A program made the translations under genes and the position numbers. The notes under the pieces are model-generated. The model searched no databases. It was not told the origin of the DNA and saw only the letters and a program-made list of their open reading frames with translations. Source: Heptranchias perlo (taxonomy: Eukaryota). From it: DNA of 64,000 nucleotides. The stretch covers positions 27,962,001-28,026,000 of the forward strand of contig NC_090349.1 of NCBI RefSeq assembly GCF_035084215.1, read 5' to 3'. Below, piece after piece: positions 17,455 to 21,891 of the stretch (positions within the stretch are counted from its first letter, which is position 1; each line of letters begins with the position of its first letter).

Positions 17455-18012
17455 AATGAAAGCGCATGGAATTGGGGGCAACCTTGTGTAATGGGTTGGA
17501 AATTGGTTGGGATGTAGGAGACAGCAAGGATAAAGGGAATGTACTCTGATTGGCAGGATGTGACAAGTGGTGTTCCCCAGGAATTTGTACTGGGGCCTCA
17601 GCTTTTCACCATATATATCAATGACTTGGATGAAGGAATAAAGAGTTGTACATGCAAGTTTGCAGATAACATTAAATTAGGAGGGATAGTAAATAGTGCA
17701 GACAGGAGCAGGAAGTTACAAATGGGCATAAGCAGATTGGGTGATGGGCAAAACTCTGGCTAATGGAGTTCAATACAGGGAAGTGTGAAGTCATCCACTT
17801 TGGATCCAAGAAAGACATCAGTATTTTCTTAGTGGTGAGAAACGAGAAGCTCTGGAGGAGCAGAGAGATTTGGGTGTCCATGTATAAAGAAATCAAAAAG
17901 GCTAATGGAATATTGGCCTGTATTTCAAGGGAGCTGAAATGCAAAGGGCAGGAAGTTATTCTGGAGAGGCTTGGTCAGACCCCATCTGGAGTACTGCATT
18001 CTGTCCTGGGCC
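17455..18012 (+). mobile_element. CR1 LINE RT fragment
   Basis: VTSGVPQEFVLGPQLFTIYINDLD, KFADNIKLGG, MEFNTGKCEVIHFG. Confidence 0.85.
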
Positions 18013-18865: not shown

Positions 18866-19525
18866 TTCCTTTCTAGTGACTCTCCCCACACTGGTGGGGA
18901 GATGAGTCATAGGAGAAAGGATTGAACCTTCAGACGAGGACAATGACACACCAGAACTGTGCCAATTACAACATTGCCAACAGGGTGTCTGAGCAATGAT
19001 CCAGATGAAGGATCATTAAAAGTCACAGAGAAAGCACCGACCTGAAGGATCAATAAAAGGCAGAGAGAGTAGTGAAAGCAAAAAAAAACAAAAAGTGATG
19101 TCAGAGAGAAGCAGCAAGGGTAAGTCAGTGTAAGTGTTTAGATTACTGGCAAGTATTTTTAGTGGTTATAGTGTTTAGTCTGTTAGTTTAAACTAACAGA
19201 CTAAACACTTTAAGTAGATTAATCTGATCAATTTAAAAATCTAAACAAAACCAAGTCAATTAGTTACATAAAAACTGTTTAATTAAATATGTAAAACAAG
19301 GTTAGATAGAGATGGCAGGACAGGTGGTGTGTCGTAACAGCAGCACGCGGGAGTTGTTGGAGACCAGCGAGATCCCGAGTAACCACAACTCCAGTAAGTG
19401 TCTGCAGCTCGAGGAACTTTGGCTCAGTTATTGAGCTAGAGTCAGAGGTGCAGACCTTGCAATGCATCAGGGAGGGAGAAGAATTATCTGGACACTGATC
19501 CAGGAGGCAGTCACACCTCTTAAGT

Positions 19526-19811
19526 TAGCCTTCCCGCCATTGTAAACCGAGGGGCTGCAATCAGGGGAAACCCTACCCCGGGCAGAATGTAAAATTCAAA
19601 TTGATGTAATGTAGCTGTAATCAATAATCTTAATTGAGTGTAATGCAATGAGACACCCTGAGTGTCATGAACTGTAATTATGTACAACGTGTCCATTGAA
19701 CTGGACTTACATAACCTGCAAATTGTATAATCTATTGTGTACATTTGGAATATGATATAACAACTGTATTGCTGCAAATTTTATGAATAAAGTATATTTT
19801 AAGAAAAAAAA
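19526..19811 (+). mobile_element. Tx1/L1-clade 3' UTR with A-tail (tail A)
   Basis: Ends TTATGAATAAAGTATATTTTAAGAAAAAAAA; shares GCAATGAG..CACCC..GAGTGTCATGAACTGTA and the terminal 20-mer with tail B. Confidence 0.65.
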
Positions 19812-19936
19812 GGTTCTCCCAGGACAAGGCTAGCCCATTGCACTTCGGATGTGCTGACGCCTGCGCTGTCCCCAAACACGGGATACTCGACTGCAAAATA
19901 TGTGGTAGTGGGGGATTGTGTTCGCGCTCGCCCCGG
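19812..19936 (+). ncRNA. RNU1: U1 snRNA-derived sequence, nt 40-164, 5'-truncated pseudogene
   Basis: Colinear without indels with human U1 as recalled (about 104/125 matches by hand); U1A loop ATTGCAC intact; Sm site altered to AATATGTG; stem-loop IV present; 5' splice-site-pairing end and stem-loop I loop absent. Confidence 0.92.
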
Positions 19937-20150
19937 TTTACAACTAAAAACAGAAATAATACGCGCTCTGTGTGGTGAGTTTTTTTTTAAAGCTCAACTT
20001 CCAAGCTCTAATCACTGTCTATCCGAGCGATCAGCGCTAAGGACTTGCTGGCCGATTAATAGTGGTGTTCGTCGTTTGCGTCCCGTTAGTTTTTCAGCAA
20101 AATACCTAGCAACCCTTAGATATTAAAGCATTTCCAGGACTGGATACCGA

Positions 20151-20434
20151 GATGCAGCTGCCGCAAAAACTCGATGGGGAAAGGCCACAGTATAGGACAC
20201 TCTCGCCATCGTACGCGGAGGGACTAGCAACCAAAAAAAACTCCTCGTAATGAATGTGTAATGACTATAATTGATGTACTGTAACTAATCTGTACTGATT
20301 ACAAGTGCAATGAGGCACCCTGGAGTGTCATGAACTGTATTTATCATGTATGACCTGTAGTTGTATTGTGATAGTTGCATTGTACTGATTACCTTTACAA
20401 ATGTTATGAATAAAGTATATTTTTGAAATATAAA
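20151..20434 (+). mobile_element. Tx1/L1-clade ORF2 C-terminus and 3' UTR (tail B)
   Basis: DAAAAKTRWGKATV* (stop 20193-20195), then a UTR ending TTATGAATAAAGTATATTTTTGAAATATAAA. Confidence 0.65.
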
Positions 20435-21783
20435 TAAGTAGTTTAGATTTGGGCAGTGGTCAGGGACAGGATATGACTGCAAGTCAGGCAGGCATGGAGA
20501 CCCAGGATGTAGTAATGGAGGAGCCTCAGCCTTTGACCTTGTCCAACAGGTATGAGGTACTTGCTACCTGTATGGATGAGATCAAAGACCACAGGGAGGA
20601 TGGGCAAACTGATTACAGCACTGTGGTACAAGAGGCCATTCAAAAAGGAGGTGGAAAAAAAAAGGGACATGGTAGGGGACTGTTCTCTGCAACTGCACCC
20701 AGGCATCCCAAGCCTGTGTTACCTGCCTGGTGCCAGGGTTAAGGAGATCCTCTTGCAGCTGGAAGAACTTGGAGCATTGGGGAGGGTGGGAAGGATCCAG
20801 TTATCATGGTCCACGTAGGAATCAATATCATAGGTAGATCTAGGAATGAGGTTCTGCTGAGGGAGTTTGAGGAGCTAGGGTTCAAATTAAAAATCAGAAC
20901 CTCAAAAAAAGTCATCTCTGGATTACTACCTGAGCCATGTGCAAGTTGGCATAGGGACAAACAGATTAGATGGTTAAGTGTGTGGCTCAAAGAGTGGTTT
21001 GGGAAGCAGGGGTTTTGATTCAAGGAACACTAGCACTAGTACTGGAGAAAGAAGGAGCTGTTCTGTTGTGATGGGCTCCACTTAAATGGGGCTGGAACCA
21101 GTGTCCTGGAGGATCAAATAACTAGGGCTTTAAAAAAAAATGGGGTGGGGGTTCAGGCAAGGGTAATTTTATTAGTCAAGAGAAAAGTCAAAGCTGTAGA
21201 GCAGAGTAGCAATTTGGGTAAAAACAAGCAGAGTGTTTCAGGAAGGAACAGAGTGCAACAAAAGGTAATAGGGCATTAGTGACTAAGGTCACATCAGGGA
21301 AAAAAGTAAAAAGTCAAAATTAAAGGCACTGTATCTGAATGCACAAAGCATTTGTAACAAGATAGATGAATTAATGGCACAAAGATAAATGGGTTTGATC
21401 TAGTAGCCATTACTGATGTGTGGTTGCAAGGTGACCAAGGTTGGGCACTAAATATTGCAGGGTACTTGACTGTTCGAAAAGATAAGCAAAATGGAAAGGG
21501 GGGAATGCCCTGATAATAAAGGATGAGATTAAAAAGACAGTAGTGAGATGAGATCTTAGCTCAAAATAAGGATGTAGAATCAGTATGGGCAGAAAACACT
21601 TAAGGGTCAGTAAACTACTCCCACACCAGTAGTTAGTTAGTGTTGGACAGTCTAAATCAGGAAATTAGAGGAACATGCAAGGGTAATGCAAATCATGGGA
21701 CTTGAATTTCTGTAGGAAACCAAATTGGCAAGAGTAGTTTGGAGGACATGTTCATGGAATGCATCTGAGAGTTTTCTAGAATA

Positions 21784-21891
21784 TAGAGTCATAGTCATAC
21801 AGCACGGATAGAGGCCCTTTGGCCCATCGTGTCCGCGCCGGCCATCAGCCCTGTCTACTCTAATCCCATATTCCAGCATTTGGTCCGTAGC
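21784..21891 (-). mobile_element. Short CR1-type 3' end inserted antisense in the long CR1
   Basis: CATAGTCATACAGCACGG...GGCCCTTTGGCCCATCG is the reverse of a CR1-type tail; it interrupts otherwise colinear CR1 sequence and retains CpGs. Confidence 0.65.

Follow-up and report, generated by a model that had tools for sequence, protein, structure and literature searches.

A 909-bp insert in the first open reading frame of a CR1/L2-like LINE of Heptranchias perlo belongs to a dispersed family of composite retroposons, in which the 3' end of a Tx1-clade element lies directly in front of the 3' part of a U1 snRNA gene. The family probably arose by 3' transduction from copies of a Keno-type element residing within U1 genes, a reading to which a probability of about 0.78 is assigned. 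The insert is regarded as a 3' transduction fossil within a real dispersed family, neither a SINE nor the product of a strictly U1-specific element. The Tx1 end upstream of U1 is termed tail A, the one that closes the unit tail B and an older Tx1 family found elsewhere in the genome family C; all three names are working labels.

Structure of the insert

The window, i.e. the whole stretch of DNA that was analysed (64,000 nucleotides, C28:27962001-28026000), was set against a searched genome of 3.25 Gb. The counts given below are lower bounds, since the genome searches scored the best candidates only and the pattern searches counted exact matches only.

Table 1. Features of the insert and of the interrupted LINE, in window coordinates
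Feature	Position	Strand	Remark
Host LINE (CR1/L2-like), part of ORF1 left of the insert	19313..19528	+	last 2 nt are microhomology with Keno
Tail A, Keno-type Tx1 3' UTR, 5'-truncated directly past the ORF2 stop	19529..19803	+	
A8 tail of Keno	19804..19811	+	read from the sequence
U1 snRNA nt 40-164	19812..19936	+	Rfam RF00003 match and the genome's own U1
Native 3' flank of a single U1 gene lineage (~196 bp)	19937..20132	+	common to intact U1 genes
Tail B part 1, last ~20 ORF2 codons of an older Keno-related Tx1	20133..20195	+	stop at 20193-20195
Tail B part 2, 3' UTR and short A tail	20196..20434	+	3' end common to dispersed copies
Host LINE resumes, rest of ORF1 and start of ORF2	20437..21780	+	

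That the insert interrupts ORF1 of the host LINE, as the preliminary description had it, is borne out by 11 other copies of that LINE, most of which run uninterrupted across the site. The 5-bp target site duplication (TSD) proposed at the same time (19521-19525 and 20435-20439) did not survive, being a natural short repeat of the host in 10 of the 11 empty copies shown. The insert extends from about 19529 to 20436, with 2 nt of microhomology at its 5' side, about two host bases lost or altered and no TSD. Another copy of the host LINE (L296) gave weak matches of its ORF1 to a GDSL esterase (E 0.003) and of its ORF2 to an AP endonuclease (E 0.0003), an esterase and endonuclease combination that fits CR1/L2. 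More LINE RT fragments were seen near the insert, at 17500-18010 and 21790-21890 of the window, together with a short element lying inside the host LINE.

Tail A has its polyA signal at 19786-19791 and is 82% identical to the full-length copy L202 over 320 columns with indels counted. It abuts U1 nt 40 by way of its A8 run, as originally described, and the final A of that run may alternatively be U1 nt 39. U1 then continues to its 3' end, again as described; the match to RF00003 (E 1.6e-13, 57.9 bits) lies below the Rfam gathering score of 69.5, a threshold at which nothing in the window matches, and the identity to the genome's own U1 is 93%. The flank that follows is carried by intact paralogs (L021, L023/L025), including the promoter-bearing one at L021/L037 (C8:60.11 Mb), and the 3' box presumably lies within its first 20 nt. 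A related LINE 3' end does close the unit, tails A and B being related Tx1 3' ends, but it begins later than had been thought: a start of tail B at 20021 was ruled out, as 20021-20132 is ordinary U1 3' flank common to intact U1 genes. The ORF2 part of tail B has an internal deletion of ~17 nt that is absent at four other aligned loci, and its polyA signal lies at 20409-20414.

A contig from the DNA run X1, which may derive from the assembly's own sample, shows no differences over 19804-20025, which makes an assembly error at the A8/U1 junction unlikely. Contigs from X5 and X7, runs guessed to be RNA in which U1 may be filtered, cover 20021-20344 at ~85-90%; one has an unrelated 5' end and they are uninformative on a composite transcript. 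The copy in the window is a fossil and inert.

The composite family and its Keno-type parent

At least 25 dispersed copies of the composite remained after loci within U1 gene clusters had been set aside, all of them 5'-truncated, with staggered 5' ends and a common 3' end. Certain loci were assigned by eye (L041 as not U1, L101 and L026 as not U2, L060 as composite and L016 as a gene-cluster locus). The median distance to the family consensus is 3.8%, with 6.4% for the window copy, which in a tree of short segments falls outside the main composite clade. With the 909-bp insert as query 71 matches were obtained from the best 40 candidates scored, and a pattern search for tail B gave at least 36 exact ends. 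Copies reach up to 4.2 kb and the long ones (L054, L061) extend up to 3.6 kb into Keno ORF2.

The order of parts is that of a transduction, namely a Keno 3' end, an old A tail, U1 target DNA and a new A tail; U1 is internal with Keno 5' of it, and copies with the junction are without U1 nt 1-36. The junction takes about seven forms among 13 copies, ranging from nt 37 to nt 43 and involving two U1 variants. The nt 39/40 junction of the preliminary description is present in the window but is a minority form, the commonest in the family being nt 36/37. TSD-like repeats of 10-19 bp were seen at 5 of 23 composite boundaries, the other 18 having no clear TSD and the window copy none; a sixth repeat, of 13 bp, is displaced outwards by 44 nt from the boundary as called, and two matches of 7 bp were left uncounted. 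Among the best 40 of 699 tail-B candidates there was no LINE copy with ORF2 upstream of tail B, and family C was ruled out as its parent, the 3' UTR being different.

The parent of tail A is a Keno-type, i.e. U2-targeting, Tx1 lineage. Its full-length copies are 5.47 kb long with intact frames of 541 and 1139 aa; ORF1 is of the ZCCHC3 type (CCHC knuckles) and ORF2 has the Pfam domains Exo_endo_phos, RVT_1 and zf-RVT, which is the two-ORF structure with AP-type endonuclease and RT expected of Keno. The available parts of PMC4494074, PMC4640811 and PMC6136364 describe Keno as a Tx1-clade element targeting U2 snRNA. In the U2 arrays the parent is flanked 5' by U2 nt 1-34 and 3' by U2 nt 38 onward, a pattern search gave 187 exact junctions of its tail with U2 (nt 37/38), and PMC6136364 quotes the same 3' target for Keno. 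The RT had no match named Keno, Mutsu, Dewa, Kibi or Tx1L; the best named protein matches are amphibian (45-48%) and from fugu (BAD04856.1, 39%), and short stretches of ORF2 match proteins of Heterodontus (78%) and Scyliorhinus (70%).

Specificity for U2 is not strict, with 551 and 324 exact 3' ends of two Keno subfamilies, the first 100 listed of each being scattered over large contigs. None of the first 30 listed of the 551 ends, which come from two contigs, is followed by U1 or U2, and the 551-end pattern misses the young Keno variant of the U2 arrays. Many dispersed full-length copies start with a U2 5' piece, without the array promoter, and the count of 349 Keno 5' ends includes tandem-amplified fragments of ~160 nt. 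At L191-L196 and L210 (C12:64.3-66 Mb) tandem-amplified units join U2(1-34) to the opening 160 nt of Keno, and each unit also holds several U2(87-191) fragments. A tRNA target for the Keno 5' ends was ruled out by the absence of tRNA genes from 30 loci, as was a common motif behind the dispersed insertions (GTTC in 0 of 30). A full SRP (7SL) RNA gene lies ~0.7 kb upstream of one Keno 5' end, on the opposite strand (L183:2251-2546). Directly upstream of ORF1, the 5' UTR of Keno has octamer, GC-box and CCAAT-like motifs (L202:1310-1360), possibly an internal promoter similar to the distal element of snRNA genes or to an H2B promoter.

Dispersed junctions of Keno with U2 are the exact parallel of the window's unit. 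All 13 of the loci fetched consist of Keno, U2(38-191), a flank of ~95 nt and a new A tail, without the 5' part of U2, many show TSDs, and they are 3' transductions of the target. This parallel family occupies L247-L259 (e.g. C1:10.99 Mb, C1:100.95 Mb and C2:148.81 Mb).

Insertions in U1 and U5 genes and elements with U1 heads

Apart from the composite family, seven loci among U1 genes (L240, L149, L145, L055, L208/L246, L056 and L059) have a Keno end joined to U1 nt 37-41, as compared with 29 intact major-type U1 genes and with 0.04 expected from the local density. The junctions fall in three separate U1-flank clades, each with intact paralogs, and occur in both old and young Keno lineages. 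At L240 a full-length, 99%-identical Keno, known from the assembly alone, lies between a U1 promoter (to -48) and U1 nt 37. The empty paralog of this locus, L155, is 96.8-99.5% identical on both sides; about 83 bp have been replaced or deleted between the two, and on the 5' side of the L240 insertion the first part of U1 is missing. Recurrent independent insertion at one U1 site, in several flank clades, is thus upheld. Strict specificity for U1 is contradicted by the 19 exact tail-U1 junctions of the genome-wide pattern search, mostly in composite copies, as against hundreds of other ends. The first of the two options originally offered, a Tx1 element inserted in U1 whose read-through RNA was retroposed, came close in its outline, but the parent is Keno and not a strictly U1-specific family.

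Tail B likewise meets U1 nt 37-39, in two locus groups, and family C does so once (U1 nt 39). In the C1858/C1477 and C21 groups an A tail links a unit of promoter, U1, flank and tail B to U1 nt 37; in the C21 group U1(37-55) is followed by a truncated U1-headed Keno. Loci L064 and L066/L245, with promoter, U1, flank and tail B and then an A tail and U1 nt 37 again, look as if a U1-started RNA had been inserted in a U1 gene, leaving an intact U1 ahead.

None of the 19 exact junctions lies in the large variant-U1 arrays (C9, C12), whose gene number of ~330 was obtained by subtraction from 375, not by direct count. In these arrays (L065, L141, L142 and L157; C9:1.5-3.5 Mb and C12:67.5-67.7 Mb) tandem variant U1 is linked to U2 with no octamer within 700 bp, and some of the units hold a short old Keno fragment fixed in U2. 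The octamer and the PSE are read here as elements of snRNA promoters. Tx1 polyA ends number 58 in 250 kb near major-type U1 genes and 14 in 80 kb near the C8 U5 genes, against none in 40 kb of U1 arrays and none in 65 kb of controls, a contrast that is inflated because the regions were picked partly for Keno hits and include paralogs.

At two further loci a Keno end is joined to U5 nt 31-36, and family-C ends meet U5 nt 33 and 41. The U5 cluster is dense in Tx1 fragments, with Tx1 A tails joined to U5 nt 31-41 (L346, L347, L351 and L352; C8:71.6-72.1 Mb). A pattern search for a U4 junction near nt 35-43 gave no exact matches. U2 and U1 have only short motifs in common around the site and U5 has fewer; in all three the site lies at +31 to +41.

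Five full-length elements, met without selection on the junction, begin with a piece of U1 that ends at nt 55-58. Pattern searches with this end fixed at nt 55 gave 8 matches, mostly in a Keno subfamily, and 19 in the older family C, which is 66-82% alike to Keno (~79% in the ORF2 protein). Family C (L364-L386 and L390-L393, e.g. C4:88.57 Mb) has U1(1-55) heads in several diverged U1 variants, and four of its copies start exactly at U1 nt 1 with no promoter ahead. A search for a source locus with promoter, U1(1-55) and element gave six matches, all of them family C, with no U1 promoter in the six upstream regions; every U1 head seen was on a copy with no U1 promoter ahead of it. The two ends, a U1(1-55) head and a U1 nt-37 junction, were not found in any single locus. 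Both U1 sequences, the major and the variant one, occur among the heads and also among the composite junctions.

Of nine sites diagnostic of the U1-headed Keno, which had been picked on U1-headed copies only, four long composites have 6-8 and 43 copies that are neither composite nor headed have at most two. The sites are ambiguous in the window copy (3/5) and in two short composites (1/6 and 1/4), a fourth short copy having 4/6. In the ORF2 tree the composites L052, L054 and L061 form a clade with the U1-headed L326 and L388 and with L153 (support 0.997), while the U2-headed L201 falls within the wider U1-headed clade. The tail variant typical of the U1-headed subfamily is the one with 324 exact ends. 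U2-headed and U1-headed subfamilies are ~96% identical in ORF2 and differ at 19 residues, four in the endonuclease and none in the RT core, which is at most a hint.

Origin of the composite family

According to the favoured reading of 3' transduction, the Keno endonuclease would nick the template strand near U1 nt 36/37 and a U1 head would pair with the target at the 5' side, the product being U1(1-55)-Keno-polyA-U1(37-164); a head to nt 55 and a junction at nt 37 would give a 19-bp duplication. Transcripts would start at or near the U1 start and mostly end at Keno's own polyA, producing ordinary dispersed copies, and roughly one in 14 (25 composites against 324 exact subfamily ends) may read through U1 to the polyA signal supplied by an older Tx1 tail B fixed ~200 bp behind some U1 genes. 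Keno ORF2 would reverse-transcribe these RNAs in cis at off-target sites, here in the CR1-like ORF1. The number of junction forms and the two U1 variants point to several U1-embedded source genes, although the many forms could instead reflect an RNA-level step. Both the 19-bp TSD and a U1 promoter borrowed by the element are pieced together from separate ends, as heads occur only where no U1 promoter lies ahead, and the genome searches found no filled source locus with promoter, U1(1-55), Keno and U1(37-164), the C21 group coming nearest to one.

This lack of a source locus would fit an improbable alternative, in which the composites are RNA-level chimeras made anew, the Keno RT stalling on U1-flank-B RNA at loop I and jumping to the polyA end of a Keno RNA. 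Loop I (nt 28-37) is bound by the U1-70K protein. The spread of junctions from nt 37 to 43 and the two U1 variants within one Keno clade would follow from such an origin, and template switches to snRNAs do occur in this genome: some U1 heads are doubled (L363, L364), and at L163 (C3:77.08 Mb) U4 nt 1-41 stands ahead of Keno's U2 head, likely through a template switch. However, Keno-U1 junctions lie inside U1 genes with local flanks, in one case with a promoter and an empty paralog, the long composites use one Keno subfamily, and the Keno+U2 transductions show a simpler route in 13 of 13 loci.

Deletions between an upstream Keno and U1 itself, later spread by transduction, are less probable again. 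At 13 of the 25 U1 starts listed, a Keno end on the same strand lies at -330 to -520, the joint at U1 -6 in L009 is of the deletion type, and the 5' truncation of Keno at L055 is that of the undeleted L067; L055 and L145 could be deletions of this kind. U1 genes alternate with full-length Keno of the same orientation ending 330-460 bp upstream of the U1 start at L143-L145, L068 and L158, and upstream Keno ends near U1 genes occupy at least five distinct sites. Deletion does not readily account for break points that cluster at nt 37-43 directly behind the A tail, for the A tail of L055 being longer than that of L067, or for L240, which keeps an upstream Keno as well as a second full-length one at nt 37, and tail-B and family-C ends meet the same part of U1.

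The second option of the preliminary description, a SINEU-like SINE of U1 head and tail B that was hit by, or template-switched to, Keno, has to be considered very unlikely. In its favour, a U1-started RNA could make the arrangement of the C1858/C1477 and C21 groups. None of the 25 dispersed copies, however, begins at U1 nt 1 without Keno in front, long copies reach 1-3.6 kb into ORF2, and in the only dispersed copy that retains a whole U1 (L009/L061), U1 is preceded by 6 nt of its upstream DNA and by 3.4 kb of Keno ORF2. Nor is the composite short (<500 bp), non-coding and free of a LINE sharing its sequence, or provided with an snRNA-derived 5' head, as a SINEU is. A one-off chimera or assembly artefact, for which only the missing TSD speaks, is already refuted by the 25 dispersed copies, the identical X1 contig and a junction that recurs genome-wide, with 19 exact matches against none for a reversed control, uniqueness in the genome being the check suggested at the outset.

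In L1 3' transduction a weak polyA signal is read through to a downstream site, and the new copy is 5'-truncated with a new A tail and a TSD. The composites differ in two ways: what is transduced is the snRNA target of the element itself, and the polyA signal reached downstream belongs to an older relative that is fixed in the U1 flank.

In the available text of PMC4640811 (2015) the snRNA-gene-targeting transposons are Keno and Utopia (U2), Dada-U1 and Dada-U6 only, and U5 appears among the known Tx1 targets in a figure legend of PMC4494074. Literature outside subscription journals and Repbase yielded no report of a retrotransposon inserting in U1 genes, nor of any in sharks. U1, and U5 with it, are further targets of the Keno lineage, U1 not having been found for this group in the literature searched. 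The element resembles Keno in its APE-type two-ORF structure and its insertion 37 nt into U2 in gene orientation with an identical 3' target. It differs from the known U2-targeting Keno in its weak specificity, with hundreds of dispersed ends, in inserting also at U1 nt 37-41 and U5 nt 31-36, in crowding octamer-bearing snRNA genes, in having a U1(1-55)-headed subfamily and in the spread of U1 and U2 3' halves by transduction.

The closest relatives in these respects are crocodilian. The accessible portion of PMC4494074 reports SINEU only from crocodilians, leaves its transcription as a question and places the Tx1-Mar families that have U1 heads in a group that clusters with Keno; Tx1-2_Crp, Tx1-2B_Crp and Tx1-4_AMi are Keno-related with a U1-derived 5' end, and the U1/U2 junction of SINEU-2, at its positions 53-58, is near the nt-55 head ends found here. 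In that portion the heads are ascribed to template switching, the target is Mariner and no U1-gene insertion is reported, whereas here heads coexist with U1 nt-37 insertions and the U1 3' part of the composite sits behind a LINE and is not a head. Dada-U1 also uses U1 genes as a safe multicopy target, but is a DDE DNA transposon of actinopterygian fish with a 6-bp TSD and a different U1 sequence (PMC3706591 and PMC8869645, in the parts available). TRE5-A and Tf1, whose insertions crowd one gene class in a position-dependent manner according to the available part of PMC3706591, differ in that tethering is only hypothesised for Keno, which also has a precise site.

Such tethering is a tentative proposal, on balance doubtful. 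The Keno lineage may find its targets by position, being tethered to Pol II snRNA genes through promoter factors or paused polymerase and nicking at ~+31 to +41; position-based tethering is possible since the U2, U1 and U5 sites are unlike in sequence yet all lie in this interval, and the alternative is loose sequence reading in open chromatin. As part of the same proposal, insertion in U1 with a 19-bp duplication could have given the Keno subfamily and family C their U1(1-55) head and promoter, and the same route, not template switching, might be the origin of crocodilian SINEU and U1-headed Tx1 and of their transcription.

A warning to be drawn is that dispersed U1 and U2 'pseudogenes' in genomes of this kind are in many cases LINE transductions. 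The genome also holds a natural target-switch series, with one endonuclease lineage at U2, U1 and U5 at near-equal distance from the start, and this series comes with filled and empty paralogs, U2- and U1-headed subfamilies and intact young copies. It makes directly testable how APE retrotransposons change target, as well as the question posed in the available part of PMC4494074, namely how snRNA-headed retroposons originate and are transcribed.
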